A stretch of DNA of 64,000 nt from Waddliaceae bacterium (GCA_963724325.1 CAVRUH010000007.1:96001-160000), one strand, 5' to 3'; shown: positions 46,806 through 64,000, counted from the first letter of the stretch. The notes: generated from the letters alone by a model not told the origin. Numbers and translations are program-made.

Positions 46806-47068
46806 CTGTGAAGGTTGTTCCTAATGCATCTAAAAGTGAGATTCTCGCCTGGGAAAATAATGAGCTTAAAATTCGTCTTCATGCAGTGCCTGACAAGAAT
46901 AAGGCTAATTTAGAGTTAATTAGACTGCTGTCGATCACCTTTAAGATACCTAAGTCGCAAATTCAAATAGTTTCTGGGAGTACATCACGTCATAAAAAGT
47001 TAATGTTGCCTGATTTTTCTCCATTGCAGCAGAAGATTCTTGTTGATTTTCAATTTCCGCAATGTTAG
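46793..47068 (+). CDS. DUF167/YggU family protein
   Basis: VKVVPNASKSEI, LKIRL.A.P...KAN, GSTSRHK. Confidence 0.88.
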   Translation: MYILAVKVVPNASKSEILAWENNELKIRLHAVPDKNKANLELIRLLSITFKIPKSQIQIVSGSTSRHKKLMLPDFSPLQQKILVDFQFPQC

Positions 47069-47090
47069 TCTATTTGCATATCCTTTAGGG

Positions 47091-47164
47091 GGGGCAATAG
47101 CTCAGTCGGTTAGAGCAGCGGACTCATAACCCGCGGGTCACTGGTTCAAGTCCAGTTTGCCCCA
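47091..47164 (+). tRNA. tRNA with CAU anticodon (probably tRNA-Ile2; elongator Met not excluded)
   Basis: Cloverleaf GGGGCAA/TTGCCCC, D-arm GCTC/GAGC, loop CTCATAA, T-arm ACTGG-TTCAAGT-CCAGT; resembles bacterial Ile2; CCA not encoded. Confidence 0.93.
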
Positions 47165-47779
47165 CATTTTTTTTACAGGACAAACTTATGACACTCATAG
47201 AATCCAAAATGGAATTTGCCGAAAGGAACCATGCGGTACTTCTATCCCTAGAGGCTCAGATTGTAGCGCACTATCAAAAACGTCCTCGCCTTCATGATCA
47301 CAATGTGATTCGCGTTTTAGAGGCTCTCATAAAGCACTTTAGGGCTTTAGCGACAAATTTCCCATTGCCTCAGCATTCATTATCTGAATTCGAGGGTGAA
47401 ATTTATCTTAGCATTCAATACAATCTAGAAAAATCGGAAGCCCTAACTCCGAATGATTCCTGTGTCCTTTTAAAGTTCCTCAAAAAATCTGTAGAGCTAA
47501 ACAACAAGAGATCGGGCTCACAGGGTTACTTAAACTTCATCAGCCGCTTCATCGAAGTTGAAATAGAGGATTAGAAACCCGAGTCACTCACCTTATTAAC
47601 ATTAAAATATGTGAGTTAGGCTTCCGCATTCCCTAAATGGTTATTTTCAAGAAAAACTTATTTGTTTTTACTCTTCAATAACACAATTGATTTTCAGTGA
47701 CTTATCAGCTTTAAAGCATAATCTTCACGTGTTCAAGAAGAGCCTTCGTTCGCTTCGCTCACTACGGCCAGATGCGCCC
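47123..47779 (+). repeat. ~657-bp direct repeat, copy 1 (tRNA 3' half + 128-aa gene + AT-rich arm)
   Basis: Near-identical to 55270-55927; the first ~250 bp also at 60444-60695. Confidence 0.95.
47188..47574 (+). CDS. Conserved hypothetical 128-aa helical protein (att-proximal gene, copy 1)
   Basis: AGGA RBS; KFLKKSV...GSQGYLNFISRF. Confidence 0.8.
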   Translation: MTLIESKMEFAERNHAVLLSLEAQIVAHYQKRPRLHDHNVIRVLEALIKHFRALATNFPLPQHSLSEFEGEIYLSIQYNLEKSEALTPNDSCVLLKFLKKSVELNNKRSGSQGYLNFISRFIEVEIED

Positions 47780-47819
47780 TCCCTTATTTTTTGCCTTAGC
47801 GAGCGCAGCGTGCGAAGGC
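47740..47819. repeat. Imperfect GC-rich hairpin (left arm only at ~55890-55911)
   Basis: GCCTTCGTTCGCTTCGCTCACT ... AGCGAGCGCAGCGTGCGAAGGC. Confidence 0.55.
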
Positions 47820-48035
47820 ATTTCTACACAAGAAGTCGAATTCACCAATTAGGCTCTTCGGGCAGACGACAACTGAGTAATTGATATTTTTGAACCAAAA
47901 CAATGCTCGAGAGGATATGAAAAAGACGAAACAAACACCAGCTATGATATCCTTATGAAATTAAGGAATGGATTCACTCGTAAAAATAAAATATAAGATT
48001 ACAGTAAAAAATATAAATTTAAAAAATAGGAGAAT

Positions 48036-48752
48036 TTACTCATTTGAATTTACTGCCTCAGTTTTTCCAAAGAATTGATTATATGCATCTTCGGAAACAA
48101 AAAACTGCTTCCAATATTTTTCGTTATAAAGATGGTCTTCGGAGGTTATGTTCTTACTCACTAGTTCTATTCCTGACTTATACGTGTTTTTACGGTTTTT
48201 AAGTTCGTTTTTGATTGCTGCAAGTTTAATGATCTTCTGAATAGAAATTTTTTCGATTTCATCAACAACAGATTTCCCTGAAATCTTTGAAAGTAAATCC
48301 GTTTGTTGGAAGTAAAAATTTCTATATTCTTTATGACCAGCGCTAATCGTTAAATTTAGATATACTAATGCCAAGAAAGGGTCTAGATTTTCATTAGCAT
48401 ACATTTGAGACACTTCAAATAAAGCTGGGGGATATCCCAAAGAGGCAGCCATTTTAAACTGCTGATTTGCCGCTTTCCTGTTTATTGATGTCCCAGTTCC
48501 TGATAACGAACACTGACCTGCAATATACATAGCAATCTCATCGCCATCAAGAGCAGCATCAAGAACCTTGCTAAGTTCAAATGTATCAGAAGTTTGAACG
48601 CTTTGCAGAAACTCTTCTAAGCCTTTTTTTTCTGTATTAGATAGCTGGAAACCATCTGAAAGATCGCTTTTAGGTGATTCTGAAGAATGGACAGTTGACG
48701 ATCCCAATGCCATTGCAAATACAGTCATTCCTATTGCTATAAGTTTAAACAT
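48036..48752 (-). CDS. Secreted SEL1-like repeat protein
   Basis: AAAGGAG RBS, signal peptide, AALDGD..AMY.AG...SG.G...N...A...F..AA.LG. Confidence 0.8.
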   Translation of the reverse strand: MFKLIAIGMTVFAMALGSSTVHSSESPKSDLSDGFQLSNTEKKGLEEFLQSVQTSDTFELSKVLDAALDGDEIAMYIAGQCSLSGTGTSINRKAANQQFKMAASLGYPPALFEVSQMYANENLDPFLALVYLNLTISAGHKEYRNFYFQQTDLLSKISGKSVVDEIEKISIQKIIKLAAIKNELKNRKNTYKSGIELVSKNITSEDHLYNEKYWKQFFVSEDAYNQFFGKTEAVNSNE

Positions 48753-48879
48753 ACAAGACACTCCTTTACAATTAGTTAGACTAGCATATACAAATATCAA
48801 CAAAACATCAAACTATTAAATCGTTTAATTGTTTGACTTTCTTGAATGATCATGCCAATCTTGTGGCATAAACTCAAAA

Positions 48880-49112
48880 AAAGGTGGGTCTTGGTTGTTA
48901 CAAAGCGAAAAGTATCCGGAGGCAAGCGCCGTGATACAGGGAGAAAATGCCTAGATACATTTTTAAGTTTGAAGCAAACTTGCCTTAAGCTGCATATTAA
49001 TTTTATTACATTTCTTAAAGACAGGGTGTGTGAGCAAAACGAGATTCCTCGGCTTGCTGAAATCATTCGCGGGCGTTCTTCAAAATCCCAAAAAACCACT
49101 GAGGCCACTTAG
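48880..49112 (+). pseudogene. IS66-family transposase C-terminal remnant
   Basis: VTKRKVSGG.R..TG...DTFLSLKQTC.KL.INF..FL.DR. Confidence 0.75.
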
Positions 49113-49122
49113 AACCAAACTA

Positions 49123-49380
49123 GGTCCAATTCACAGACATAGGTAACACTTTGATTCACAAACATAGGTAACACTTTTCAAAATATGGTATAATACTCTC
49201 ATCATTAACAATTTAGGGAGTATTTATGCCTTGGGAGAACTTGAAAGTGGAAAATCTTAGGTTAAAACTGATTCAATCCTTCTTGAAGGGTGAAGAGACA
49301 ATGACAGACTTATGTTTAGAGAATGGAATAAGTCGAAAAACTGGGTATAAATGGTTAGCGAGATATGAGAAATATGGGGC
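49123..49380 (+). mobile_element. IS481-family left end + transposase N-terminal fragment
   Basis: Tandem CACA(G/A)ACATAGGTAACACTTT motifs; MPWE...LC..NGISRKTGYKWLARY..YG HTH. Confidence 0.8.
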
Positions 49381-50242
49381 CACTGTGCTTATGGAATGCA
49401 ATCAATTGGAAACTTGGCTTTTTGAATCACCAGAGCCTTCTGAAACAGCATCGACTAATGCAGCACACTGCATAAAATGTTGGCGTGATTATCTTGAAAT
49501 TAAAGATGCTTACTATGGGGATTTTGAGGAGTTTGAGTTGCCTGAGCCGAAAGAGGGAGAAATTCTGCAAGATTATATCATGCGCATGGCAAGGTTGGTT
49601 GAAGAGGAAGGAAAAGGGTCTAGACTTGAGTGGCGTGCGCTCAAATCCTTTTTGGGTTACATGCGAAATTTGGCTCATGAAGAAATTGCTTTCATCGAGC
49701 AAATCTTTCCTTTTAAAATGAATATCCACGATTCAAGGATTATTCGACTGATTGAGCCGGAGGTTTACCCGATCTCACAGGCAATTGCCGCGGACATTCT
49801 CAAGGAACTGGCCAGGATGTGTAAATATGGAAGGCCGAATGCTAAGCATGGGGCTGCTGAAGCACTTGGGTTGTGCTGGTTGTGTTTATCAGCATCGCGC
49901 ATGCGATTGCCTATCACTCTCACTGATATTCATGGCACGAAAAAAACGTCAGTTTTTGCCGATGAAAAATGTGCTAAATTGCTGGTACCAACTATCTTTG
50001 GAAATAGGTCTCTAAGAATCTCGCGACGACTGGCAAAATACCTGTCAGCGCTTGCTGGGATTTCATCAATAGATCCAAGAAAAACTATTCTGCAGAGGCC
50101 TAAGAGGTCATTAATGAGAGTATTGGATAGAGCTATTGAAAATCTTAGACTCGATCCAAAATTAGGAAATATAACTTTTGTAACCTTAATTTCTTCGCCC
50201 GACATCTCGGGTGGCGATCATCGTTATGTCCGTAATTCTTAA
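49226..50242 (+). CDS. Chimeric ORF: IS481 HTH fused to a hypothetical domain with possible degenerate tyrosine-recombinase-like fold
   Basis: First ~51 aa are IS481-like; the remainder has no DDE motif. Confidence 0.55.
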   Translation: MPWENLKVENLRLKLIQSFLKGEETMTDLCLENGISRKTGYKWLARYEKYGATVLMECNQLETWLFESPEPSETASTNAAHCIKCWRDYLEIKDAYYGDFEEFELPEPKEGEILQDYIMRMARLVEEEGKGSRLEWRALKSFLGYMRNLAHEEIAFIEQIFPFKMNIHDSRIIRLIEPEVYPISQAIAADILKELARMCKYGRPNAKHGAAEALGLCWLCLSASRMRLPITLTDIHGTKKTSVFADEKCAKLLVPTIFGNRSLRISRRLAKYLSALAGISSIDPRKTILQRPKRSLMRVLDRAIENLRLDPKLGNITFVTLISSPDISGGDHRYVRNS

Positions 50243-50272
50243 TAGATAAAAAGTGTCCATCGCTGTGCCGAC

Positions 50273-50542
50273 GTGATTCGATCCATTTCATTTACAATGA
50301 GCGCAATTCCGAAATTAACAACATCAGGAGGCGCCAATGAGCGATTATCAGTATTTGGATATAAATCAAATTGTAGAGGGTGGCAATACCCCTTTTCATT
50401 AGGGCAATTACGTCACTACCTAATTATGCGGCACAAAAATAATCTTGAGATTGCAGTCCGAAAGATTGGAAAGCGGCTGTATTTGCGTAAGGATCTTTTT
50501 GAACAATGGATAGAAGATCAAAAGGAGAGGAAAAATGGATAA
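50273..50542 (+). CDS. Excisionase/AlpA-like small DNA-binding protein (start uncertain)
   Basis: YPFSLGQLRHYL..R..NNL..AVRKIGKRLYLRKDLFEQWIE. Confidence 0.65.
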   Translation: MIRSISFTMSAIPKLTTSGGANERLSVFGYKSNCRGWQYPFSLGQLRHYLIMRHKNNLEIAVRKIGKRLYLRKDLFEQWIEDQKERKNG

Positions 50543-50913
50543 TTTTCTCCTCGATGAAAAAGGTGTTTGGTTTGCGCCACCCACACATTCCCTTGGTAGA
50601 TCATCACGGAAGCAAGGGAACCCTGCAAGATTGGCAACAATATATTGCCAAATTTTGTGTGGACAATTCGCGACTTGGCTTTTGTGTAAGTGTGGGGTTT
50701 ACTTCACCCCTTCTTTATTTGTTAGGGGAAGAAAATGGAGGTTTTAACCTTCGAGGACCGAGCAGCGGAGGCAAAACAACTGCGCTAAAAGTTGGTCTCT
50801 CAACTTATGGAAGTGAAAAGATGCTCCATTCGTGGCGAGCTACATCAAACGGTCTTGAATCAATTGCGGCCCTTCACAATGATTGTCTCCAAGGAGTTGC
50901 AAGTCTTACTTAG
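50535..50913 (+). pseudogene. DUF927 (primase/helicase) fragment, frameshifted and truncated
   Basis: GTLQDWQ, GGFNLRGPSSGGKTT Walker A, SWRATSNGLE..AALHND. Confidence 0.8.
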
Positions 50914-51175
50914 GAAAAATGGATATTCTGATGCAAAGGAAATATCAGCCAAACTCATTGAGCTCTATTCCCGACAGAATCAACGCTTGGAAGAGGACAT
51001 TCAAAAGCTAATTAAGCAAAAGCTTACGAATGACACATCAAATAAACTCACCTTCATGCTTGGTTTGATCCCTACAGTGGATAACACAGACAAAGTCCTG
51101 AAATATGAGCGCTCCCTACAAAAATCGATTTTCCAGAACCTCCTTATGTTGAAAAAACTGCAAGGGGCTTTCTAG
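50890..51175 (+). pseudogene. 3' remnant of a hypothetical island gene
   Basis: No credible start; DKVLKYERSLQKSIFQNLLMLKKLQ C-terminus. Confidence 0.45.
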
Positions 51176-51277
51176 AAATGGGTCTGTTTTGGAAAAATGC
51201 AAAGTTAAAAAAACTGTCCTATGACTATGGCGACCTTCTCTAAGTGTATGGGGCAATGTCACTTGCAATTAGGAGGA

Positions 51278-52285
51278 TCAGAAGGTGCCATAGAGGTAGT
51301 TCCAATATGCCGTGAATATTTCAGACTGTTCTGAGGTCAGAGGCTCAACAATAATAAAGCTTTCATCACTGCGTGTAAATGAAGATTGTGACCAGTTTGC
51401 CGAACCATTAACCAAAATACTGTTATCGATGCACATAAGCTTATTATGCATGAAGCTTAATTTTGGGTTGACCTTAACCTCTATCCCTGCCGCCATTAGC
51501 TTTGGTAGATTTCCACCAAAATCAGGTGCTACCACCTGTACTTTTATTCCTCGTTGGTGGGCTTTAATTACTGCATTTGCAAGATCATTGTTGGTCCAAA
51601 CCATCATGGCAATATGGATGCTTGTATTCGCTTGATCGATTTTTTCAATGAGAAATTGTTTAGATTGCTCGTTGATTGACTTTTCTACTTTTTTTTGTGG
51701 AAACCCATCATGAGGCAGAAGACAAAAATAGATGTCTTGACTGAGTAGAGAAATAAGTAATGGTCCATGTTCGGTTCGGTGAGCACTTAAGCGAAATATA
51801 TCTGCTTCGTGATGAAGATATTGCGCTAACTCAGTTGAATTAAATCTTACCATTAAATTTTCTTGGGTTTGATATGCAGATGTTGTAAAGTTTGCGGATC
51901 CAATCCAAATTTCACTTTCATCTACAACCAGTATCTTGTGATGAAGATGACCTTCTCCTGTCGTCCTCGTCACAATTTCAATATTTGGCAGCTTTTTGCT
52001 TGCAATTTCACCTAAATGGTCTCTATCGATCACGACTGTGACTTTTAATCCCTCGTTTGCTTTCTGATTGAGTGCTGCGATAATTTCGGGATCAGATAGG
52101 CTGAATGTAATAATCAGAATTGATTTTTCAGCGTGAAGAATGCTTTCCTTTATCGAAACGCTTAAGTGTTTACGGTCTTGGGTATGATATAGCTGTGCGT
52201 CAGCTGCTACTGTAGCTTCAAGGCTGCCTACGCAAAATACCATAGCTGCTAATAGACTGAAAATTGATAATTTAAATTTTAACAT
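51278..52285 (-). CDS. Secreted phospholipase D / Nuc-like protein with two HKD motifs
   Basis: Signal peptide; HHKILVVD..WIGSANFT and HNKLMCID..NGSANWS. Confidence 0.9.
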   Translation of the reverse strand: MLKFKLSIFSLLAAMVFCVGSLEATVAADAQLYHTQDRKHLSVSIKESILHAEKSILIITFSLSDPEIIAALNQKANEGLKVTVVIDRDHLGEIASKKLPNIEIVTRTTGEGHLHHKILVVDESEIWIGSANFTTSAYQTQENLMVRFNSTELAQYLHHEADIFRLSAHRTEHGPLLISLLSQDIYFCLLPHDGFPQKKVEKSINEQSKQFLIEKIDQANTSIHIAMMVWTNNDLANAVIKAHQRGIKVQVVAPDFGGNLPKLMAAGIEVKVNPKLSFMHNKLMCIDNSILVNGSANWSQSSFTRSDESFIIVEPLTSEQSEIFTAYWNYLYGTF

Positions 52286-52299
52286 GGTTAACCTTCCTT

Positions 52300-53259
52300 T
52301 TAATTATTCCAAGCTTGCAATAGATTTTGTCTCAATTTATCTCTCCTCATGGGGTCGAATGTAGAAGATTTGATTAAATTGCGAAGTTCGAGCTCCCAAA
52401 TCTTAAGCTTGCCAGGCTGAATTTTTGTATAACGTTTTATGATAAGCGGTGATGTAGGATTAAGTACCCCACTAATGCCTAAAACAAGTCGCAATTCTTG
52501 TGGAAATTCATCTGAAGGAGTGTCGAGGAAATATTCACTGATCAATTGATTCTCAGCAATGAATCCATTGGGATATGATGCATACCCCACTGTATTTCCA
52601 AAAGCATATAAAGAGACAGAGCTATCAAAAAATTGCAGAAGAACGCCGGCTTTACTGTCCAGATGTTGATGTGAGATAGTATAAGCCACCTCTATCAATG
52701 ATGAGTCCATTCCAAGTTCTTCGAACATGTGTTTCAAGTCCTTTCGCTGTTGATAGGTGTCGCTACCTACATTCTTCGTAAAATTTAAGACTGAGTTTAA
52801 CCCTAGGCGGTTGTGATTCGAGTAGATGCAGAAGTTCAAGGGGAAAGTACTTTCTGCGACCAACTGCGAATAGTGTATTTCACTTACAAATACCCGTGAA
52901 AAAACTTCTAGAGATTCTAGAAAGTTGTTTTTTTTAAATGGCGTTGAAACGAAATGAAAATCCTTTCTGATGGGCACATCTAGGACCTCTTCGACAATTA
53001 TACGAATAATGTCTTGGTAAACTAGAAAATCTAAACTGTCTCCATGATATCCCATGAAGCTGATATTTTCCTGAGCTATAGCTTTATCGAATAACTCACG
53101 GTAATCTAATCCAACACCTTTTCCTTTCAGATTATACTTAATCTGATCGAGTCCAACAAATGCAACATATTGCTTTGAAGGAGATTCAAATTCAGCACCA
53201 TGGATTCTGATGGTCCCACAAATAAATAACAAGCTTAAAAGTAGGATTTTATTATTCAT
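52300..53259 (-). CDS. Secreted hypothetical protein, paralog of 53252..54274 (possible ADP-ribosyltransferase-like fold)
   Basis: Signal peptide; FMGYHGDS..YQDIIR, RKDFHF, LLQFFD, FPQELRL, LNP.SPL.I.R. Confidence 0.7.
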   Translation of the reverse strand: MNNKILLLSLLFICGTIRIHGAEFESPSKQYVAFVGLDQIKYNLKGKGVGLDYRELFDKAIAQENISFMGYHGDSLDFLVYQDIIRIIVEEVLDVPIRKDFHFVSTPFKKNNFLESLEVFSRVFVSEIHYSQLVAESTFPLNFCIYSNHNRLGLNSVLNFTKNVGSDTYQQRKDLKHMFEELGMDSSLIEVAYTISHQHLDSKAGVLLQFFDSSVSLYAFGNTVGYASYPNGFIAENQLISEYFLDTPSDEFPQELRLVLGISGVLNPTSPLIIKRYTKIQPGKLKIWELELRNLIKSSTFDPMRRDKLRQNLLQAWNN

Positions 53260-54274
53260 TTTTTTCTCTCCACATGTTCAATAACAATTCACGATACTGT
53301 ACGACTTTTGTTTCATCGTAAGGCAGTGTTCTGATTGCTTCACGTAAGTTAGATTCATACTCATTGATTAGTTCGGGATCATTCCTGTCAAAGCGCATGA
53401 TATATAGAGGGGAATACGGATTTAGAGTGACGGAGTTGTTAATGACAAGCCGGAATTGTGCAGGAAAAGCTGTAGAATTAACGCCAAGGAATATTTCGGA
53501 CATTCTTTTCTCATTGAGAATTGGACGTCCGCCGGGCAAGGCATTATAGCATAATTGATTTATCAAATCATAATGATTTTGAAATGCATTGTGATGAGAA
53601 AAGTCGAAGAATTGGAATAACACAGCATTATCCATGGTCATCAAAGGGTTGCCTATTGCAAATAAATCAGGTATCGCTTCGGTTGGTATTCCTAAAGAAT
53701 CAAATAAATAATTTAGTTGAGTTTGGAATCCAACGGTCGTTGCAGATCTATTCCTTGTAAACCAGTAGACAGTGCATTCCCCAAAGTTATCGAAATTCCC
53801 AAAGAGTGAATAATTCATCGACAACAACTGCTCTCGTTGTTCTGGTAACGCGTCAATCACTGCAGGATAGTCTTTCAGGAATTGCTCCTCACTTTCCCGA
53901 TTTAGCATAGGTTTTCCTGGGATGCGCAGAAAGTGAAAGTCTTTTCTAATATGGATCTCGCAAATTTCCTCTATTATTATCCGAATAATATCTTGATAAA
54001 TACGAAATCCTTGAGTGCTGCTATGGTATCCAAAAAAACCAAGCTCTTCGTGGGGAATGATGTGCTCGAAGAAATTGCGATGCTCCAAAGACAACCCGTT
54101 TGTCTTCAGCGCTTGCAATATTTTCTCGTAATTGTAAAATCCGCAAAAGCGATTTGTTGGGGATGCATATACGGCTTCGGTTCGAATCGGCATATCGAAA
54201 TCTACGATTGCCGGAGTGGCAAGCAATGATAAATTACAAAGTGCAATTAAAATAAATAAAATTAATCTAATCAT
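53252..54274 (-). CDS. Secreted hypothetical protein, paralog of 52300..53259 (possible ADP-ribosyltransferase-like fold)
   Basis: Signal peptide; FFGYHSS..YQDIIR, RKDFHF, SMNYSLFGN..GECT, FPAQFRL. Confidence 0.7.
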   Translation of the reverse strand: MIRLILFILIALCNLSLLATPAIVDFDMPIRTEAVYASPTNRFCGFYNYEKILQALKTNGLSLEHRNFFEHIIPHEELGFFGYHSSTQGFRIYQDIIRIIIEEICEIHIRKDFHFLRIPGKPMLNRESEEQFLKDYPAVIDALPEQREQLLSMNYSLFGNFDNFGECTVYWFTRNRSATTVGFQTQLNYLFDSLGIPTEAIPDLFAIGNPLMTMDNAVLFQFFDFSHHNAFQNHYDLINQLCYNALPGGRPILNEKRMSEIFLGVNSTAFPAQFRLVINNSVTLNPYSPLYIMRFDRNDPELINEYESNLREAIRTLPYDETKVVQYRELLLNMWREKNE

Positions 54275-54425
54275 AATTATTTAACCAATATATTTAAGAT
54301 GAATACATTTTAACAATTATCAATTTATAAGTCAATCATAAACATGCATTTTTATATCGATTTGAATGGACCAATGCAATATGCTTTGTGGGGATAAGTC
54401 TAAATTCAACCATAAAGGAGAAATT

Positions 54426-55019
54426 ATGTTGAACAGTTTTATCCGAAAGTTTTTATTTATCATTGTTCTTACGACATCGCTGTCATCCCCTATTTTTGCT
54501 GTGGATGACTTTCAAGTTGAGTATCAACCACAGGTCATCGAAAAAGTAATTCAGTTTGAGAAGAAAAGCATCTTAAAGCAAAAAGCAAATGGATACCTAT
54601 ATGTCGAAGTGTCTCGAGATTTTATTGCCGAGGCTCTTCCTCTAATTGATGCCCCGGGAAAAATTGTACACCCGAGTCATTATACTAGCAAGAAAGGGAT
54701 TGGAGCCCATATCAGCATTATTTATGAAAATGAGTTGATTGAACATGAAATCTGGGAGATCGATGAGTTGGGGCAAGAGTTCACATTCTCGGTCATGGAG
54801 TTGAGGACGGTAAAACTAAATGACAATAACAAGATGAAAAAACTTTGGCTTTTGGCAGTAGCTGCTCCCGAGTTAGAGAAACTTCGTGAGGGTTATGGTC
54901 TATCATCCCGTTTAAAAAACCATGATTTCCATATAACAATAGGAACTCAAGTACCTGGTAAAGTCTATGTTTTATTCGATGAGATAATCATTGAAGAGGA
55001 GCTGGAAGAAGCAGCATAA
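54426..55019 (+). CDS. Secreted 2H phosphoesterase-family protein
   Basis: AAAGGAG RBS; signal peptide; two Hx(S/T)x motifs GAHISII and DFHITIG. Confidence 0.75.
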   Translation: MLNSFIRKFLFIIVLTTSLSSPIFAVDDFQVEYQPQVIEKVIQFEKKSILKQKANGYLYVEVSRDFIAEALPLIDAPGKIVHPSHYTSKKGIGAHISIIYENELIEHEIWEIDELGQEFTFSVMELRTVKLNDNNKMKKLWLLAVAAPELEKLREGYGLSSRLKNHDFHITIGTQVPGKVYVLFDEIIIEEELEEAA

Positions 55020-55133
55020 GGCTGATTCCAAAGATAAAATCGATTTGGTAGCCTAACAACAGGGGATTCGAATGCCTCTTTTGTGCTTTTGCTCAACTTC
55101 AGTTTAAGCACGACTTTCACAACTATCCTTCGC

Positions 55134-55311
55134 GTTGCAATGGCGGTGCAATGATTTACCTATTTATCCAATAATATCCATCAGAAACCAGTTGCAATTT
55201 GATTGCATATCCTTTAGCATGTTACTCATAGCGGTTGGATGGTGTTGATTGGAGTGGAAGTCCCCCTCCCTCATAACCCGCGGGTCACTGGTTCAAGTCC
55301 AGTTTGCCCCA
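55134..55311 (+). other. attP-like junction between islands A and B (arm + tRNA 3' half 55270-55311)
   Basis: tRNA identity starts exactly at the 7-nt anticodon loop CTCATAA; upstream 48 bp match 60396-60443 at 42/48; GTGCA-type short repeats. Confidence 0.85.
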
Positions 55312-55927: not shown

Positions 55928-56042
55928 GGCGTTATTAAAGTAGACCCAACTGTCTAGCTAAAAAGAGGAACATTTATTATTATGTGAAAGTTTGCGAAGT
56001 AATACCGAAAAATAATGTTCTCCATTGAGATTAGAGAGATTA

Positions 56043-56369
56043 TCACAAGACAAACTCGATAATTAGACAAAAAGTGTAGACCATTCCTAAAAAGAGTAGT
56101 GGCAGCAAGTGATAAAGTAGAAAAACAGGCAGGGAGGGATCATGGAGATGCTTCCACCCTTTATAGATTCCAAAAGGTGATGAGAGTGGCGATAGAAGTG
56201 TAATAATTATGAAAGTCATTATCGTTTTTGGATAATCAAGTTCATAATCCGCAAATCCCATGGGTAGAATCCATGTAATAAGTAGCAATAGGATAAAAAG
56301 AAATATGTTTAGGACGGTGAAACCTCTTGCAAGATAAAGCCTGATACTAGCCTTTTCTATAAATTCCAT
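56043..56369 (-). CDS. Hypothetical three-TM membrane protein
   Basis: AAGGA RBS; three hydrophobic segments. Confidence 0.55.
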   Translation of the reverse strand: MEFIEKASIRLYLARGFTVLNIFLFILLLLITWILPMGFADYELDYPKTIMTFIIITLLSPLSSPFGIYKGWKHLHDPSLPVFLLYHLLPLLFLGMVYTFCLIIEFVL

Positions 56370-56538
56370 CTATTAATTCCTTTAAGGTTCTCTGATACTG
56401 CGGATCGTCAAATCCATGCTGTGGACCCGAACTCTTTTGCTGATAGATTATCCGAGTATTCCTAAGTTCTTCAAGCCTTTTTTTATATCCATTGAATTTT
56501 TCCTTCTTATAGATTTCGTACTCTACTCCACTAAACAT
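56347..56538 (-). CDS. Short hypothetical protein or gene fragment
   Basis: AGGAG upstream; lies in a co-oriented three-ORF run. Confidence 0.35.
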   Translation of the reverse strand: MFSGVEYEIYKKEKFNGYKKRLEELRNTRIIYQQKSSGPQHGFDDPQYQRTLKELIDGIYRKG

Positions 56539-56577
56539 AAGAATTGCTCCTAGAAGTTGTTTTAAAAATATATTTTG

Positions 56578-57852
56578 TTATCTAATGTGAAAAGAAGATA
56601 CTAACTTATTCCATTCTTCGGAAATTTGTGGAGTTTCGCTATTAAAAGATTGAGTAATTTGATAGAGTCTTCTTTTTTTGAGCACAAACAATGTTCTATA
56701 AATTTTACCTGAATTTTCTGCTAGAAGCTCAATAGAGGGACAACCTTCATGCTCGCCTAAGTTCCAAGATAAAACAATCATTTTATTGCTCAATCCGAGC
56801 CAAGCTAGATCAATGGAACCGTTTTTATCCATTTGACTTTGAATCTCGTTTATCAGCATAGAGATTGAAGGGTCAGAATATTCAAGAATAATTTCGCTAA
56901 ACATCGTCATATTTAAAACTTTCAGCTCAGGGTCTTCAAAATCTGGGTGATTAATCTCTTTTAGAATACCCATATAAGTAACCATTGGTAAAGTGACAAT
57001 GGATTCGATAAAATAGCCGCTGTCACCATACTCTCCAAATAAAGTCTTGGGAGCGAAAGGCCCAAGTCTAGAATAGAAAATTCTGTGATAAATGTTATAT
57101 TTTGGAGGAATATTAATGTCATAAGTGTTCCGACCCAATAAGATATTGCGTTGTACAGTTTCACAAAACAAATTTGCCCACAAAAGTTTATGCCAATCAT
57201 AGTTGAGAATGCTTTGATACTGTCGGTATGATTCTGTAGTAGTTATCCAAGAAGGAATCATTGTGTTTTGAGATTCAATTTTAAATCCTAAATGATATGC
57301 GGGTGTTCCCGAAAAAGCTGGATATATTCCCCATGCAGAAGCTAAATAGAAGATATTTTGAATTTCTAGGCGATATACGAATTGATTTATAGCAACAAGG
57401 AGTCCACGCCGTTCAGATAAATTTCGAAAATTTACGCTAAAATTTGTGGCGCTATTATCGCAATAATACACAGACTCTTTGCCATAAACATGTCCTTTTT
57501 TAAAATAGGAAAAGCCGTCGTTTTCAATTTTATTTAAAAGATCATCCATCCAACTTTTATATTTTACTGAGTCATTTGCTATTGAATTTGGAAGTTTATA
57601 AATCCAAACTTTAAAAGGACCCATGTGTGTTTCACTATAATAATGGGTGATTTCCACATTTTCTTCATGATAGCTTTCCATTCTAGTAGCATCCCAAGTG
57701 TGAAGAGTAATGCGATGATCTTTTGGCCCTGGAATTTCTATTGTATATCCCTTGTTAAGCGATAGAAGCCCCATCAAGTCTATTGCTATTCCCCCAGATA
57801 AAGACCCAAAATGCACCAAAATAAAAAATGAGTATATTAATTTTTTCATCAT
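56578..57852 (-). CDS. Hypothetical exported protein
   Basis: 424 aa, N-terminal signal-like segment; C-terminal beta-rich end (YQIT...SSFHIR). Confidence 0.65.
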   Translation of the reverse strand: MMKKLIYSFFILVHFGSLSGGIAIDLMGLLSLNKGYTIEIPGPKDHRITLHTWDATRMESYHEENVEITHYYSETHMGPFKVWIYKLPNSIANDSVKYKSWMDDLLNKIENDGFSYFKKGHVYGKESVYYCDNSATNFSVNFRNLSERRGLLVAINQFVYRLEIQNIFYLASAWGIYPAFSGTPAYHLGFKIESQNTMIPSWITTTESYRQYQSILNYDWHKLLWANLFCETVQRNILLGRNTYDINIPPKYNIYHRIFYSRLGPFAPKTLFGEYGDSGYFIESIVTLPMVTYMGILKEINHPDFEDPELKVLNMTMFSEIILEYSDPSISMLINEIQSQMDKNGSIDLAWLGLSNKMIVLSWNLGEHEGCPSIELLAENSGKIYRTLFVLKKRRLYQITQSFNSETPQISEEWNKLVSSFHIR

Positions 57853-57995
57853 AATGTCAATTATTTTACAGTAATTGTTCTAATAGTGCAACTAAAAAGA
57901 CGAGCTAACGGCAATTAGGAGTTTGTTAAATAAAAGATCAAAAATAGAATAGGGTGATTTTGGCCCCAGAAATATTTTTTTTGAGCTCCAAACTG

Positions 57996-58265
57996 ATTTG
58001 AGTTTTTGATCAGCTGATAAAATATTTCAGGGCAAAAGCAACTAATTTTCCATTCCAAGAGTCTAAATTTTCTTTGCCTATTGAAAATGATTTATATGAT
58101 TCGCTTAAGGAATGTCTTGAGGAAACTGAAGGCAAAACAGCTAATGAAGCATATAACATTTTTAAATTCTTAAAAAAATCAGTCGAATTTTGGAACAGAG
58201 AAGGGGGCTCTCAAGGCTGCCTTACATATATATCGCGCTTCATAGATGTTGAAGAAAAAAAATGA
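57996..58265 (+). pseudogene. 5'-truncated diverged paralog of the 128-aa att-proximal gene
   Basis: I*VFDQLIKYFRAKATNFP...KFLKKSVEFWNREGGSQGCLTYISRFIDVE aligns to IRVLEALIKHFRALATNFP...KFLKKSVELNNKRSGSQGYLNFISRFIEVE. Confidence 0.85.
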
Positions 58266-58545
58266 TGGGACCCGGGCGTGAAAAACTGACATTTTAAAGT
58301 AAGCATACGCGTATTAAAAGTAAGCGCATATGCACGCCCGACCCCAATCATTTCTAAAGTTATCTTCGATGCCCCTGGCAACATCTTTAGGGTCATCAGG
58401 GTCAATCTAAATAAAAAAAATCTTAATATGTATCCTACTTAAAAATTTAAAAAATCCTCCCAATTTAACCCCCCCTTGTTTTCAATGCAAAATCAGATAG
58501 AAAAATTTTAATTCAAGGGTTTATGTCTATTTTGTTGGCTAGGGA

Positions 58546-58585
58546 TTACAGTGCGACACCTACAGCGTAATCTACAGCGTAATCT
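58546..58585. repeat. Tandem 12-bp repeats CTACAGCGTAAT x2 (+1 degenerate); integrase arm-site-like
   Basis: 58560-58571 and 58572-58583. Confidence 0.55.
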
Positions 58586-58647
58586 CCATAAGTCTGCAGA
58601 AGTAGTTTCCACGAATAGTACCATCACAGAGAGGTGTTACCCATACC

Positions 58648-59409
58648 TTAGACAATAATTAATTCTAGAAATGATTTTTGGTGAGCTTTGGGACGCAAAT
58701 AGGGTTCCTTTTTTGTATGAACAACGATTGCGTAGAGAATTCCTGCTTCCGCAAGAGCTATTGCTTCTTTTTTAAGAAGCCACACACTGTCCTCATGTGA
58801 ATTACCAACTAAAAATTCAGTAATGACATGTCGTTTATTGACTCGAACTCCCTGAACTTTCTTTACATCAATATATTCCTCACGTCCCTCTCTCCATCCT
58901 TCATGTTTTTTCATAGCATCAAGCAATTGTTCATATTCTTTGTCGTTTAGGGAACGAATCGTGCGATCCATATCAAATTTAGTAAAAAATTTAATCGCTT
59001 TTCGATAGTTAATGACTTCTTCTGTATCGGGTTGTCCCTTTTTGACACCAGTGTAAGTACGTACAAATTCATTGAGGGTGCAATCAATATACATATTGCC
59101 TTCTTTTAAACGTAAGGCCTGTGCCCTTCTACCAGTTTCATAATCAGGATAAACTGCAAACCTATAATCTTTGTTTTCTTTATTAGGTATCTTCCCAGCG
59201 GAACCGATAGCTCCGTTCCTTTTTGCGAAATCTCCCATTGCGTGATTACCAGGATTATTATTTCTCCATGATCTAGTACTTGCTTGATCCACTGGCTGTT
59301 CTGGATAGGCTTTCCAAAAGCGCTTTAAATGATTCCCATCTTCATCATAATAGATGACCGAATTTTCTGGCCCTTCTACAACTTTTATCCATTTATTTTG
59401 AGTCTTCAT
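58648..59409 (-). CDS. Lysozyme-like (RNNNPGN motif) protein with DUF3892-like C-terminus
   Basis: RSWRNNNPGN, FAVYPDYETGRRA, AMKKHEG; C-terminal WL.KKEAI.LAE.G...VH....YLR. Confidence 0.7.
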   Translation of the reverse strand: MKTQNKWIKVVEGPENSVIYYDEDGNHLKRFWKAYPEQPVDQASTRSWRNNNPGNHAMGDFAKRNGAIGSAGKIPNKENKDYRFAVYPDYETGRRAQALRLKEGNMYIDCTLNEFVRTYTGVKKGQPDTEEVINYRKAIKFFTKFDMDRTIRSLNDKEYEQLLDAMKKHEGWREGREEYIDVKKVQGVRVNKRHVITEFLVGNSHEDSVWLLKKEAIALAEAGILYAIVVHTKKEPYLRPKAHQKSFLELIIV

Positions 59410-59577
59410 ACATTTACTTCAGGTTTAATCAACAAAATAGAATAAATTATAAATTATTAATTTTAAATAACTTGTCTACGAATTATAGCAGATTAGGAGA
59501 AATTTTTCTAATCAAAAATAAATGGTTCAAAATGGTCCCCTTTTGGTAATATCGCCTCTTCTTGGTAGGGAGAAATT

Positions 59578-60273
59578 ATGGTTGATGCAAAACGTATTAA
59601 CAGAAATGGTGCATGGATTTCTTTTTCTATAGCTCACAGCCTCCTTATTTTTTTGGGAATACTCGTTGTTGGGTGTGAAAAAAACGGTGAGATTGACGTA
59701 GATGATCTCAATTCTGAGAAAAATATTTTTATTAGTAGGGTTCTTGATGCAGAGCTAGGCGAGGGACCTTTTTTTATAAACTATTCGTTGAGTACAGTCT
59801 TTTTTTCACAAGATATTGTAAGCATCTTTGGAGAATTCACACGTTATACAGACTTCCCACATGATCGTAAGCATTATGAAGGAAAAACATTTTGTAGAAT
59901 AAATGGAAAATTCCAATTAATATCTTTCGATGATCTTTTTTCTGCTGAAAAGCAAAAAGAATTTATCAGAAAGTATTGTGAGGATGTTCTCAAGGCTAAG
60001 TCTATAGGCTATTTTGGTGAGGATCCACCTCTTCGCGATCAACTTGATTTAAAGGAAATTCAAACATTTTTAATTCATGAAAATTTTTTTATCATCGTAT
60101 TCCAACGTTATATTGTAGCCGGTCTTGACGATTATCCGACAACATTACGAATTCCTTACAATATTTTGAAGGGTCATATTAATCCAAACATTCCTTTGAT
60201 CACACTCTTAGAAAAAACAGTAAAATCAAATTCTTTTATTTCTTCTTGGGAAGATGTTTTGGGTGGTTCGTAG
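59578..60273 (+). CDS. Lipoprotein, RsiV/DUF3298-like
   Basis: Lipobox LVVGC; YT..PH, ISFDDLF, F.I....F.I.F..Y.VA......L.IPY. Confidence 0.6.
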   Translation: MVDAKRINRNGAWISFSIAHSLLIFLGILVVGCEKNGEIDVDDLNSEKNIFISRVLDAELGEGPFFINYSLSTVFFSQDIVSIFGEFTRYTDFPHDRKHYEGKTFCRINGKFQLISFDDLFSAEKQKEFIRKYCEDVLKAKSIGYFGEDPPLRDQLDLKEIQTFLIHENFFIIVFQRYIVAGLDDYPTTLRIPYNILKGHINPNIPLITLLEKTVKSNSFISSWEDVLGGS

Positions 60274-60308
60274 ACACACACGAAGCCTCTCTTTTTATTG
60301 CATTTCCC

Positions 60309-60485
60309 GTGCACTGGCGGTGCAACGGTGCAGTACTTTATCCATTTTCAACCGTCAAAATTCGGTAGCAATAAATACATAAGTCATTTATTATCTTACT
60401 CAAAGCGGTTGAGTGGTGTTGATTGGAGTGGTAGTCTTCCTCCCTCATAACCCGCGGGTCACTGGTTCAAGTCCAGTTTGCCCCA
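60309..60485 (+). other. attP-like junction between islands B and C (arm + tRNA 3' half 60444-60485)
   Basis: Third copy of CTCATAACCCGC...TTGCCCCA; GTGCA repeats; TAAGTCATTT IHF-like site. Confidence 0.85.
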
Positions 60486-60507
60486 CATTTTTTTACAGGA
60501 CAAACTT

Positions 60508-60695
60508 ATGACACTAATAGAATCCAAAATGGAATTTGCCGAAAGGAATCCTGCAATACTTCTCTCCCTAGAGGCTCAGATTGTAACGCACTATCAAAAA
60601 CGTCCTCGCCTTCATGATCACGATGTGATTCGCGTTTTAGAGGCTCTCATAAAGCACTTTAAGGCCTTAGCGACAAATTTCCCATTGCCTCAGCA
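60508..60695 (+). pseudogene. 128-aa gene copy 3, truncated by an IS481 end
   Basis: Identity to copy 1 stops after CCTCAGCA at 60695. Confidence 0.88.
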
Positions 60696-61467
60696 GGTGC
60701 GGTTACAGACATAGGTTACACTTTTATTGTTAAAATGTTATATAAAAAGCAGGGGGCAACTAGCCCCCTGCCAAAAAAACATCCGTCACCCATCGTCTCT
60801 CGGTCGCAGCGGGGAGTTTTCTTCTTGGTACCAATAATTATACTATGTATGGTCAAAAGATGCATTAGGAAAATACACAAGAAAACATCTAGAATTTTGA
60901 GTTTTGAGGGAGCTGTGGGGGTTTCTTCTTGGTCGGGGGTTTGGGGGCTGGCCCCCAATATATTCACTTCCGATCGTTGTCATTAGCGCTGCCTCCTTCT
61001 CTTAACTTTTGGTTTTTCAAGCCCTTCCTTTACAAGTTTTCCTAAGTATATAGGTCCATAATAAACATCATATTCCCCCTGTTCATTAGCCTTAAGACCA
61101 ACATATTCTCCAGTAAGCGTTTGTCCAATATAATGATCATTCTGATGTAACCATAAACAACCACTTGCACAAATCTTTCTAACAATCATTTTTTGTGTGT
61201 CGTATTCTGGTTTCCTTAAAACTCCATCCCAAGTCCGTAAGGATTTAGTATAAACACTTGCTGGTGTTTGCATATTCAAGGCTTCATGAGGCCTTTCAAA
61301 GTTATATTCGTCTAAGAATTTGCTGTTCGCTTGTATTTGCAATACAAGGGATGCTTTAGCAGGGTTTGCTACTTCTTGTTGTAGTGTAGAATGGAATCTC
61401 TCGTGCCTTCCATTTTCCTCAGGATGTCCTGGATTTATCCACTCAGGGATAACTCCAGCTTTAATTA
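60696..61467 (-). mobile_element. IS481-family remnant (transposase C-terminal half + right end)
   Basis: PGHPEENGRHERFHSTL, YNFERPHEALNMQTPASVY; end motif ACAGACATAGGTTACAC matches 49133-49149. Confidence 0.85.
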
Positions 61468-61781
61468 GATTGGCGTGATTTAGTCGGAATAGCAACGTAG
61501 ACAAAGTGAGGGATTTGTGTGGTGATTTCGTGATAAGCCAAAGCAGAGATCAGGCATATAATTCCGTTAGGAATTTTTTTCAAAACAAGAACAAGATCAG
61601 GCTAGGAAAAGTCTGGGATTTCAATTAGCCCATAGACTCCTCTAGCTAATTGTTCCAAGAGCCCCTCATCTCACATCTGATATAGTGTGCGTGGGTGAAT
61701 GCCCAATTGGATAGCTTCACCCGAGCGGAGGAGTCCCTGGTGTGATTTAAAGTGCTTGATCGCTATCTGTTTTGCATTCAT
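61468..61781 (-). pseudogene. Type IV TA AbiEi-family antitoxin pseudogene (two internal stops, truncated)
   Basis: Manual translation MNAKQIA...GIHPRTLYQM*DEGLLEQLARGVY...FS*PDL...GIICLISALAYHEITTQIPHFVYVAIP. Confidence 0.85.
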
Positions 61782-61829
61782 GGATAGTAATGTCGGTAAA
61801 TGTTAACATTTTACTACATTCTTATCCAT
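61780..61829. promoter_or_regulatory. Imperfect palindrome, probable AbiEi operator
   Basis: ATGGATAGTAATGTCGGTAAATGTT / AACATTTTACTACATTCTTATCCAT directly upstream of the AbiEi remnant. Confidence 0.55.
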
Positions 61830-61871
61830 ATTGCAGAGTATTCCTATGAGCTCTTACTGCCTAGAAACAAC

Positions 61872-62650
61872 TTAAAGTTCTAAAAGCTTTTTCATAGTTT
61901 TTTCAAAATGAAGCTTACGTAGCCTGCCAGAGGGGTCTTGCGCTTCCAATTTAACCCAGTCATTTGGAGAGGCATTGTCAAGCCAGATTCGTAGATTTTT
62001 CTGAAGAGTTTTAAACCATTTCGGATGCTGTTTTGCCAATACGTTGAATTCAATTAGAGCCCGATCAGAAAAATCGCCTAATTGGGAAGTGACATACCAA
62101 ATACCATAAAGATCCTTAAGAATCTTTAAAGCACTTTTGCGTTTCGTAAAAGTAAGCCCCTTATGGAATATCCAAGCACCTGGTGTAACTACATTTCCTG
62201 CAATGTTTGAGTGGGTATGAAACTTTATGGTTGTCTGCAAGCTTAAGGTTAAATAGCTTAGCGGTTGGGCAACCACACCAGCAATGACGACATTTTTATT
62301 TTTGTTTTCCTGACTAGAGTCATCCGTCAAAAATTCAATTTCAATTTCAGCGCCTGCAATTTCCTTCACATAGGCTTCTGTCGCAGGATCTCTAAATCTT
62401 TAAAAACATGATTGAAACCTGCTTCTCGAAGATAATTTTGAATGTTCTTTTTCGAAATTTGTGGGATTTTCCTTGGAATAAGAGAATCGATATCTCTTGT
62501 TCCTACTGGAGGGTTCTTTAATTTTGGATCAGCTAGATAAAGCTTGTAGATAAAGAGTGCAAATCCACCTCCAATGACGATAAAATCTCGCCATGGACCA
62601 ATAGATTCTAAAAATTCTGAAATGATTTTGTCTTCTTGATTAGATGTCAT
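61872..62650 (-). pseudogene. Nucleotidyltransferase toxin (AbiEii/GSU2403-like), split by a frameshift near 62388
   Basis: VIGGGFA...TRDID NTase motif in 62366..62650; continues PATEAYVKEI...HKGL....KDL in 61872..62369. Confidence 0.8.
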
Positions 62651-63379
62651 GACGATTTACCACTTTTATAAATACGCTTAAGCTCTGGAAGACGTTCTGC
62701 CATAAATTCTGCTTGTTCTTGTCCACGTAAAGGAAAGTGATATAAATCCAAAAAAGTCAAAATAGAAGGAGAGACATTGATATCTAGATTTGAGTCAGAA
62801 GCATGCTTAAGCAAGCTTTTGTAGTAAGGTTCTATAAGCAAAACTTCATAGCCTCTTTCTTGAGGTTCTAATAGTAGCTTTTTCTCAAGTTGTGGTCTAA
62901 CCAAAGGATCAAGCAGGTATAGTTCAAGAGTGTTTAAGTTGGTGTTTTTATATCCATGCGCTTCAGCAGCAGAATGAAGAGCCAATGCTACCTTATTGCT
63001 TAGATTTGACTTTTTAATTGCCTCTAAAAGCTCTGCTTTATCTTGGAACCCAGAACGATAAGTTCTCATTTTGCATTTTTTTACGATGCTGTAATGTTCT
63101 AGCCAGCTTTCAAGAAGGCGTTTGGGATCTTTCAAGAAAAACTTTTTGGCGGTTCTTATTCCTTCGGCTTGCAAAATTCCTTTTAAAACTAAAGTCCCAA
63201 AGACGCGTTGTACTGATCCAAGACTTACCCCAGCTTCTTTAGACACATTTCGCACGGATAACTCTCGACTCTTTGATGCCTTCTCTCAGCAACCAATCAA
63301 GAACCACGGCAGATTTGTCCGAATAGATATTCCCTTCCACAGGTTTTTCATTCGAGCCTATCAAAAACCGACCTTCCAT
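62647..63379 (-). pseudogene. AbiEi-like winged-helix antitoxin, frameshift near 63270
   Basis: AAGGAGG RBS + ATG 63379 (MEGRFLIG...IYSDKSAVVLDWLL) shifts into RELSVRNVSKEAGVSLGSV HTH; C-terminal VSP.LTFLDL....RGQEQAE. Confidence 0.8.
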
Positions 63380-63392
63380 ACGACCTCCTTAT

Positions 63393-63448
63393 CTGTTCAT
63401 TATTTTATACTGTTCAATATTTATGGAACAGTATAAAATATGGAACAG
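63393..63448. promoter_or_regulatory. 23-bp inverted repeat, probable AbiEi autorepression operator
   Basis: CTGTTCATTATTTTATACTGTTC / GAACAGTATAAAATATGGAACAG (21/23). Confidence 0.7.
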
Positions 63449-63490
63449 CGAATATTAACGTAAAAAGTTTAAAGAAACAAGGAGAGTCTA

Positions 63491-64000
63491 ATGACGAACA
63501 CAACAAATTCTTCAAGTCAAAAACAAATCAGAATGCCAGTACCTGTCGATTCCTTAATCACCATTCTACATAATATACAATTGAAAATTGATTCAGCTGC
63601 TGGCGCTGCAACAGCGCTAGAGCTCCGGCTGCGAATTATCGCTCAGATAGAAGAGAAAGTTCGAGATGAACTAAAGAAAAATACAAAAGACCCTTTTCAT
63701 CAGGCAACTCTTAAACATCTCATTTCAGCAGTCCTTGAGGTATTTCAAGATAAACTTGATGCAACCGAGCAAAGTATAATAAAACAATGCCGCCCCCCTC
63801 GCAATAAAACTGCGCATGGCAGCTTTGCTGAGTTAATGATCGAACTGGCAGGGGAGGCTTCTGGTAGACAGCTTGATAATCGCACATTGAAACCATTACC
63901 TTTAGCAGAAGATGATATAATTGAAGGAGCAATATGCATTGAGAGAAATGGTGGTTTAGAGGATTTTTCAAAACTTGCAAACCGTGCAGTATCAATTCTT
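63491..64000 (+). CDS. HEPN-domain-like protein (3' end outside window)
   Basis: AAGGAG RBS; open to the window end; ATALELRLR and RNKTAHG (Rx4H) motifs. Confidence 0.65.
   Translation, partial: MTNTTNSSSQKQIRMPVPVDSLITILHNIQLKIDSAAGAATALELRLRIIAQIEEKVRDELKKNTKDPFHQATLKHLISAVLEVFQDKLDATEQSIIKQCRPPRNKTAHGSFAELMIELAGEASGRQLDNRTLKPLPLAEDDIIEGAICIERNGGLEDFSKLANRAVSIL

Follow-up and report, generated by a model that had tools for sequence, protein, structure and literature searches.

The tandem array downstream of a tRNA-Met(CAU) gene

A stretch of 64,000 nucleotides (nt) from a Waddliaceae bacterium assembly (genome G000, contig C7, positions 96001–160000; referred to here as the window) contains an intact transfer RNA (tRNA) gene for Met(CAU), followed by a tandem array of units bounded by copies of the 3′ half of that tRNA. 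Positions are counted from the first letter of the window, and those beyond 64,000 are window-equivalent positions on the same contig. The tRNA gene (47091–47165, plus strand; detected by ARAGORN and by the Rfam tRNA model with 69.9 bits) forms the head of the array, and pncA- and DUF167-type genes lie upstream of it. The segment that runs from the anticodon loop to the 3′ end of the gene (47123–47165, CTCATAA..., junction J0) is a core of 43 nt that is repeated further downstream. The copies at 55270 (J1) and 60444 (J2) are identical to it at 43 of 43 positions, with spacings of 8147 and 5174 bp, in agreement with a preliminary description of the window, made without database searches, which had reported that the tRNA half recurs at these two positions, each time starting at the anticodon loop, and that it bounds units of ~8.1 and ~5.2 kb. 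The same description had recommended looking for junctions beyond 64 kb, and three more were found there, at 64305 (J3), 71919 (J4), and 73533 (J5), again without an integrase. J3 and J4 have two and four mismatches to the core, respectively, and J5 is shortened, with ~28–30 nt kept.

In total, the tRNA half is present six times, always on the same strand, over a span of 26.4 kb, and a minimum of five units is delimited in this way: A with 8.1 kb, B with 5.2 kb, C with 3.9 kb, D with 7.6 kb, and E with 1.6 kb. The internal core copies are not called as tRNAs, the gene at 47091–47165 being the only one detected by ARAGORN and by Rfam (the latter over 46500–64000). The units contain 2–10 open reading frames (ORFs) each, on both strands, and the comparison of ORFs and Pfam domains revealed no cargo gene common to different units, as expected from the unrelated cargo described before. 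Past J5, no synteny anchor was found in genomes G001, G002, or G004. The first gene after J5 (locus L007:9589–10071, window-equivalent 73589–74071) encodes a Cass2/GyrI-like “integron-associated effector-binding” protein. The end of the array is not fixed, because the G001 homologue of this gene sits on a different contig.

Every junction has its own unique flanks, and a 216-nt contig from a public run spans 55166–55381, across J1, with zero differences; this contig is not independent, because the run may be the source sample. The same architecture is seen at the same tRNA in G001, the only other genome of the genus. These observations speak against the possibility, raised in the preliminary description, that the repeats are assembly artifacts. 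In four soil-metagenome runs from one study, 5–7% of the sampled words were present, and on 45000–64000 these runs gave short low-depth contigs and no joints, at a depth too low to bear on excision; a strain with the units in another order was not encountered. One read entry links 49153 and 60709, which lie in two of the insertion sequence (IS) end-like motifs described below, and probably represents another copy of that repeat.

Intact and broken islands at the same tRNA gene in related chlamydiae

By the flanking housekeeping gene, the closest relatives of G000 are metagenome-assembled chlamydiae labelled Waddliaceae or Chlamydiae. For G006, which belongs to another genus of the same family, the tRNA is followed by a 368-amino-acid (aa) integrase (PF00589, 2.7e-31), a 438-aa ORF, and a RepB_primase/DUF3987 gene, and the cargo includes a type I restriction-modification system, a YhcG nuclease, and SIR2. 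For G007, likewise from another genus of the family, the tRNA is followed by a 357-aa integrase, a 359-aa protein (X), and a CHC2 zinc finger primase/DUF3987 gene, with an Eco57I-type methylase, a PLD-helicase, and nucleases as cargo.

Broken forms are also present. The units of G292 contain N- and C-terminal fragments of an integrase, a DUF3987 fragment, and a split hsdR. A second island of G007 opens with a 206-aa ORF that adjoins IS66 and has no Pfam match; over 330 nt, this ORF has 74.5% DNA identity with the post-core stretch of G006, the site of the integrase gene. G001 has two more tRNA halves, 1.6 and 2.2 kb apart, after this tRNA, and these units contain no integrase and include an F-box protein among their cargo. 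Neither of two units in G085 has an integrase, and one of them (2.1 kb) has an AbiEi/AbiEii pair only.

A survey of 401 genomes of the order with a 33-nt tRNA-half pattern, allowing up to three mismatches, gave a match in 115 genomes, and the reversed-pattern control gave none in any. Among the matches listed, at least 21 of the 401 genomes (G000 included) contain two or more same-strand tRNA halves within 30 kb of a single contig. In a set of ten other genomes with at least two matches each, 33 core copies were listed; a PF00589 match lies 0.65–1.1 kb downstream of 13 of them, one is followed by a broken integrase, and 19 by none, where no integrase is anticipated downstream of the terminal core of an array. 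Arrays with no integrase on the contig were found in 4 of these ten genomes, and G018 and G394 have arrays and only two PF00589 matches each, both of Xer-like size. In this survey, an integrase-free stack is therefore a common end state.

Integrases in G000 and a sister island at tRNA-Lys

No match to PF00589 was detected on C7 between 143 and 200 kb, and of the ORFs scanned, 19 in the window and 19 in the 20 kb that follow, none has a tyrosine recombinase domain. The observation, first made for the units in the window, that they show no intact integrase thus extends across the array. The search of the whole genome (11 contigs, 84.6% complete) gave four PF00589 matches, none of them within the array, and the only island-type integrase in G000 sits at a tRNA-Lys gene, with a core different from that of tRNA-Met.

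This tRNA-Lys(UUU) island (C1:53425–68373, within locus L071, C1:52001–72000) is 14.9 kb long and intact-looking. A perfect 52-bp repeat beginning at the anticodon stem-loop marks its two ends, and the island encodes a 357-aa integrase, a 470-aa ORF, an 800-aa RepB_primase/DUF3987 protein, and Bro-N, DUF3800, and TPR-Ntox50 proteins. The integrase is 44–49% identical to the tRNA-Met integrases, and the arm motifs beside the cores of the tRNA-Lys and tRNA-Met islands (P arms) are collinear, with 67.7% identity over 96 nt and equal offsets. To judge from its sequence, the island family is alive in G000 at this second site.

Relics of an island backbone in unit A and IS fragments

Unit A alone has both components of the autonomous-island backbone, X and the primase-helicase, each of them damaged. 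For the first, a 338-aa ORF (49226–50242, plus strand) aligns with the G007 gene adjoining the integrase (X) at 39.6% identity over 323 aa, and in the order-wide search the X homologues align only to residues ~44–335. Residues 12–56 match the N terminus of an IS481 transposase (NCBIfam transpos_IS481; also Pfam HTH_28/LZ_Tnp_IS481), and residues 1–57 align to the N termini of multi-copy ORFs of ~400 aa. These alignments show the 338-aa ORF to be a chimera, in which the first ~45 residues of an IS481 transposase stand in place of the N terminus of X. Gene X has no match in Pfam, PHROG, or PADLOC and no PDB sequence match, and X (~360 aa) is therefore regarded as an uncharacterised conserved backbone gene of the islands. 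Homologues of X occur in ~40 of the 401 genomes searched (loci L081–L099). X lies 1.2–2.5 kb 3′ of the tRNA-Met core in six genomes (G003, G006, G007, G081, G104, and G245), and an integrase was seen between the core and X in two of them, G007 and G104.

For the second component, a DUF927 primase-helicase fragment (50506–50913, plus strand; Pfam 2.9e-32, profile positions 146–243 of 284) represents a relic of the replication module. It covers a third of the Pfam profile and corresponds to positions 242–335 of 633 of a PHROG DNA primase/helicase. Only ~1 kb separates gene X from the next gene, which is far too short for a primase-helicase. Between X and this fragment, an 89-aa ORF (50273–50542, plus strand) encodes a candidate excisionase-type helix-turn-helix (HTH) protein, with a Pfam HTH_17 match below the cut-off (E = 0.016).

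Two tandem 25-nt IS-end-like motifs (repeat family D5; 49129–49177, plus strand) lie just 5′ of the chimeric ORF. An IS remnant is also found in unit C (60701–61504), where copy 3 of the left-end module described below breaks, and consists of the motif (60701–60748) and a fragment of an rve_3 (DDE transposase) gene on the minus strand (60983–61504). The motif is present in addition as an inverted pair, ~130 bp, at C1:407046–407174, and no full-length copy of the element was found in the assembly. The 25-nt motifs look like IS ends, of the IS481 type or of a miniature inverted-repeat transposable element.

The right-end arms

The stretches immediately upstream of the J1 and J2 cores, the right ends of units A and B (55140–55269 and 60314–60443, both on the plus strand), form an arm, P1, that is identical at 42 of 48 positions beside the core and ~72% identical over 130 nt. 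The conserved upstream arm of the preliminary description was thereby reproduced; the GTGCA repeats attributed to it were found at one junction only, since the three GTGCA copies upstream of 60444 contrast with a single one upstream of 55270. Overall, no fewer than three kinds of right arm can be told apart: J1 and J2 have P1, J3 and J4 share another kind, and J5 has a third.

These arms have relatives outside the array. Homologues of P1 are the right arm of the second G007 island, a G001 junction, and a metagenome locus, L079, and the right arm of the tRNA-Lys island has motifs collinear with P1. Two short collinear stretches, 31 and 21 nt long, are common to the J5 arm and the intact G006 island's right arm, and a stretch of 40 nt is common to the J5 arm and an arm of G292. 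Together with the sister arm at tRNA-Lys, these relationships indicate that the arms in the window are those of an integrase-bearing island family.

The 15-mer TTGCATATCCTTTAG occurs at only two sites in the window, just 5′ of the tRNA (47074–47088) and in the right arm of unit A (55203–55217), and may be a motif of the attachment (att) arm or an old capture of the tRNA leader. This 15-nt identity with the leader raised the possibility that P1 and the core form a pseudo-tRNA, which was rejected: Rfam and ARAGORN were negative, and the motif is also present in the arm of the tRNA-Lys island. For these reasons, P1 is read as a predicted att arm and not as an RNA gene.

The left-end module and its 128-aa gene

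For units A, B, and C, the array side of the junction is formed by a left-end module. Copy 1 (P′1; 47123–47780, plus strand) consists of the core, a 128-aa ORF (47188–47574), and ~200 bp, and its 657 bp are 97% identical to copy 2 at J1 (55270–55927, plus strand), with the core at 55270–55312 and the ORF at 55335–55721. In copy 3 at J2 (60444–60695, plus strand), identified like copy 2 by repeat comparison, the 128-aa gene is cut after ~62 codons. A conserved downstream arm of ~600 bp, as first proposed for each internal junction, is thus present at 55270, but at 60444 it extends over ~250 bp only. The modules of the three units are 95–97% identical, and unit E has a degenerate trace of the module. 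A diverged relic of a second 128-aa-type gene is located inside unit B (57990–58253, plus strand; 49% aa identity, one internal TGA, no core upstream), which suggests that two units have been fused. Two copies of the gene are therefore truncated or pseudogenised. As pointed out earlier for the 657-bp direct repeats, homologous recombination between them could, in principle, delete unit A.

The 128-aa ORFs of copies 1 and 2 have seven differences, of which five are at third codon positions and five are clustered within 16 nt; the 205 bp 3′ of the ORF have ten substitutions and one indel. The protein has no match in Pfam, PHROG, NCBIfam, or PADLOC. Its model is an all-helical bundle (predicted local distance difference test score 88.8); a fold comparison with the PDB gave no match at E ≤ 0.001, the best hits being unrelated helical bundles. 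A search of the genome contigs with the single 128-aa protein gave no relative, and matches were found in only 2 of 60 relatives searched, both weak (E = 5.6e-6 and 0.003). Among 5.8 billion proteins, only three others were retrieved, with 45–50% identity.

For one of four metagenome loci with a 128-aa homologue, the 1.1-kb contig L079, the order of P1 arm, core, and gene is the same as in the array, and the gene product is 51% identical. The other three loci have neither a core nearby nor mobile-element genes, and the neighbouring genes there are of the photolyase, NmrA, Macro, GNAT, and NUDIX types. A conserved spacer of ~110 nt lies 5′ of the homologue in L079:305–480, between core and gene, and in L077:3400–3545, which has no core; it is absent from G000 and has no credible Rfam match. 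The 128-aa gene was also considered as the original chromosomal flank of the tRNA, and this was rejected, because G001 does not have the gene and a chromosomal flank could not occur three times.

Cargo of the units

For unit A, the remaining genes are a 255-aa ORF with only a sub-threshold Pfam hit and no family assigned (48036–48803, minus strand), a PLD-like protein with two HKD domains and a hydrophobic N terminus (51278–52285, minus strand; Pfam PLDc_2, 7.5e-45; PADLOC DrmC-like, 2.5e-20), two paralogous ORFs of 319 and 340 aa that have hydrophobic N termini, long motifs in common, and no Pfam match (52300–54274, minus strand), and a 2H phosphoesterase (54366–55019, plus strand; Pfam 2H-SAK, 1.7e-17).

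For unit B, ORFs of 108, 63, and 424 aa (56043–57852, minus strand) and a pair of 253 aa on the minus strand and 231 aa on the plus strand (58648–60273) belong to no known family. For unit C, an AbiEi-type antitoxin gene (62647–63255; Pfam AbiEi_2, 4.2e-8) is followed on the same, minus strand by nucleotidyltransferase ORFs at 62366–62650 and 61872–62369 (NTP_transf_8, 3.9e-4, below the cut-off), the whole spanning 61872–63255. These two overlapping ORFs, of 94 and 165 aa, cover 61872–62650, and the nucleotidyltransferase may be split, as a frameshifted toxin gene. A HEPN-like ORF of 180 aa (63491–64000 in the window, plus strand, ending at window-equivalent 64033; Pfam HEPN_Swt1, 3e-5, below the cut-off) is also part of the cargo of this unit. 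For unit D, a 265-aa ORF of the HTH-SocA/Panacea antitoxin type and an overlapping 122-aa ORF of no known family (L007:4617–5763, window-equivalent 68617–69763) are a possible toxin–antitoxin pair.

Origin of the array

The intact and broken islands in relatives, the backbone relics in unit A, and the IS fragments point to accretion followed by decay: the array probably arose by site-specific accretion of one family of tRNA-targeting islands, a reading to which we assign a probability of roughly 65%. Islands of this family would have inserted repeatedly into the segment between the anticodon loop and the 3′ end of the single tRNA-Met(CAU) gene, each insertion restoring the tRNA and shifting the older units downstream. 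The intact form, as reconstructed from the relatives, would comprise the tRNA, a tyrosine integrase, X (~360 aa), a primase-helicase, cargo such as restriction-modification, SIR2, and AbiE genes, the right arm, and a tRNA half. In each of the five units, the integrase would have disappeared, with IS insertion, deletion, and the fusion of neighbours as the causes, and what is left would be att-flanked remnants, resembling cis-mobilizable elements (CIMEs), with secreted-enzyme, toxin–antitoxin, and accessory genes. We infer the order of insertions, the present immobility of the units unless an integrase is supplied, and the origin of the highly similar 128-aa left modules from related incoming elements, from gene conversion within the array, or from both.

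The preliminary description had instead viewed the locus as an integron-like platform of cassettes. This view is not supported, in the light of the autonomous islands that G006 and G007 carry at the same tRNA and of the broken integrases of G292 and the second G007 island; the units of relatives thus largely appear to be decayed autonomous islands that had their own integrase. It is also at variance with the X and DUF927 relics in unit A and the IS fragments in units A and C, and neither IntI nor attC-type sites are involved.

Several observations weigh against accretion followed by decay as the full explanation. The genus itself provided no intact tRNA-Met island, the units of G001 being integrase-less too, and the tRNA-Met integrase may be missing from G000 because the assembly is only 84.6% complete. 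Moreover, units A, B, and C open with a near-identical module (95–97%) and not with integrase debris, whereas the right arms are only 72% identical; the module has left a trace in unit E and a diverged relic in unit B; and the junction of P1, core, and 128-aa gene recurs on L079 with a gene 51% identical. The distribution of the differences between copies 1 and 2, with very small numbers, hints at purifying selection on the 128-aa ORF. The conservation of the module, the L079 junction, and this hint together make room for an element family whose left end never had an integrase. The conserved left module thus leaves room for a family of integrase-less elements as well as for gene conversion among long direct repeats.

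If the units with the P1 arm and the 128-aa module were non-autonomous cassettes moved in trans by the integrase of a co-resident integrase–X–primase island, the locus would be a gene-capture platform. The left module that is shared by three units despite their unrelated cargo, its junction kept in another organism (L079), and the hint of selection on the 128-aa ORF would fit such mobilisation, as would the P1 arm in common with a G007 island that opens in integrase-gene-like sequence and the collinear P arms at tRNA-Lys and tRNA-Met (67.7% over 96 nt). We nevertheless consider it unlikely: the assembly yielded no integrase of the tRNA-Met type, the sole island-type one being at tRNA-Lys with a different core; unit A has relics of an autonomous island, and IS fragments lie at the break points of A and C; two copies of the 128-aa gene are truncated or pseudogenised; three of the four metagenome loci with the gene have no nearby core or mobile-element genes; the arrays of G018 and G394 coexist with only two PF00589 matches of Xer size each; and the modelled 128-aa protein has no DNA-binding or recombinase-like fold. 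More specifically, these units might constitute a distinct integrase-less “hitcher” family of environmental chlamydiae that borrows the integrase of the integrase–X–primase island, with the 128-aa helical protein as a conserved and selected left-end function. This proposal is quite unlikely. If it were true, the tRNA-Met(CAU) locus would be an order-wide capture platform for effector, toxin–antitoxin, and defence genes, and gene capture would take place in bacteria that are thought to have little gene flow.

The greater similarity of the left modules (95–97%) than of the right arms (72%) could also be produced within the array, by one or two integrations from which the core and module spread through unequal sister-chromatid exchange or re-integration, followed by differential deletions and gene conversion. 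The clustering of five of the seven differences between copies 1 and 2 within 16 nt resembles a conversion patch, and the diverged relic in unit B suggests fused units. However, no cargo is common between units, and the right arms are of at least three types, which requires several different incoming elements; the J5 arm in particular shares its stretches of 31 and 21 nt with the intact G006 island. Such duplication with concerted evolution is therefore improbable as the source of the array. Collapsed or chimeric joins arising from assembly or binning would be conceivable in a metagenome-assembled genome that is incomplete (11 contigs, 84.6%) and whose region is held by public runs at very low depth only, but the flanks of every junction are unique, J1 is covered exactly by a contig that was built separately, and at least 21 of the 401 genomes, G000 included, have arrays at this tRNA, so that an artifact is extremely improbable.

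Comparison with known systems and significance

Islands and satellites of the P4-like type at tRNA genes have the integrase beside the tRNA, a small regulator, a primase-helicase, and defence cargo at the far end. The gene layout of the intact islands considered here is alike, whereas gene X has no known family, and no capsid-hijacking or phage-interaction genes were identified. Integrons likewise form an ordered stack of unrelated cargo with a repeated recombination site. In contrast to integrons, no IntI, attI, Pc promoter, or attC hairpins were seen here, no dedicated attC model having been run, and the units are 1.6–8 kb long and multi-gene, lie on both strands, and have relic backbones of their own, the repeated site being a tRNA half.

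Closer parallels are found among elements that accrete. Integrated integrative and conjugative or mobilizable elements (ICEs and IMEs) can decay to a CIME, onto which further elements accrete (PMC5704250). The CIMEs of the Streptococcus thermophilus ICESt1 family have lost their integration genes and kept attL and attR, and they are stacked in tandem at the 3′ end of the target gene by repeated site-specific integration, with the decayed partners usually in the majority; the array is alike in all three respects. Retention of the att sites of the CIME type is suggested by the intact cores at J0–J4 and the conserved arms, which are predicted sites; a functional element that could act as a partner in excision or transfer is not present in the array. 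Unlike ICEs and IMEs, the array shows no conjugation or relaxase genes, the backbone here being integrase, X, and primase-helicase, and unlike the Streptococcus host of ICESt1, the host is an obligate intracellular-type chlamydia.

Tandem islands at the Dehalococcoides ssrA gene, only 16 of 31 of which have an integration module, provide a second parallel (PMC3146451); the remaining islands were proposed to be cis-mobilizable or fixed. Many tandem islands there lie 3′ of one small-RNA gene with direct repeats of its 3′ end, and a conserved motif is located just 5′ of each repeat, as in the array. The Dehalococcoides islands use the transfer-messenger RNA as target, a 20-bp repeat, and a serine recombinase (CcrB-like), whereas the array has tRNA-Met as its target and a 43-bp repeat running from the anticodon loop, and a tyrosine integrase is used in relatives.

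A literature search for a chlamydial tRNA-Met island hot spot found none among the papers covered; only the tRNA-Gly island Pam100G of Protochlamydia amoebophila came up (PMC548262). Pam100G is similarly linked to a tRNA, is flanked by direct repeats, and belongs to an environmental chlamydia, but it is a single 100-kb island of the conjugative type at another tRNA, whereas small units form an array here.

Overall, the array adds a chlamydial example to a known kind of island accretion; mechanistically, it is no integron analogue, and it reveals no new mechanism of recombination. One tRNA-Met(CAU) gene is a recurrent island landing site across many chlamydial lineages, where stacks persist as integrase-free fossils with secreted enzymes, toxin–antitoxin pairs, and defence genes, and the tRNA half with its arm motifs provides a simple marker for delimiting accessory DNA in chlamydial metagenome-assembled genomes.

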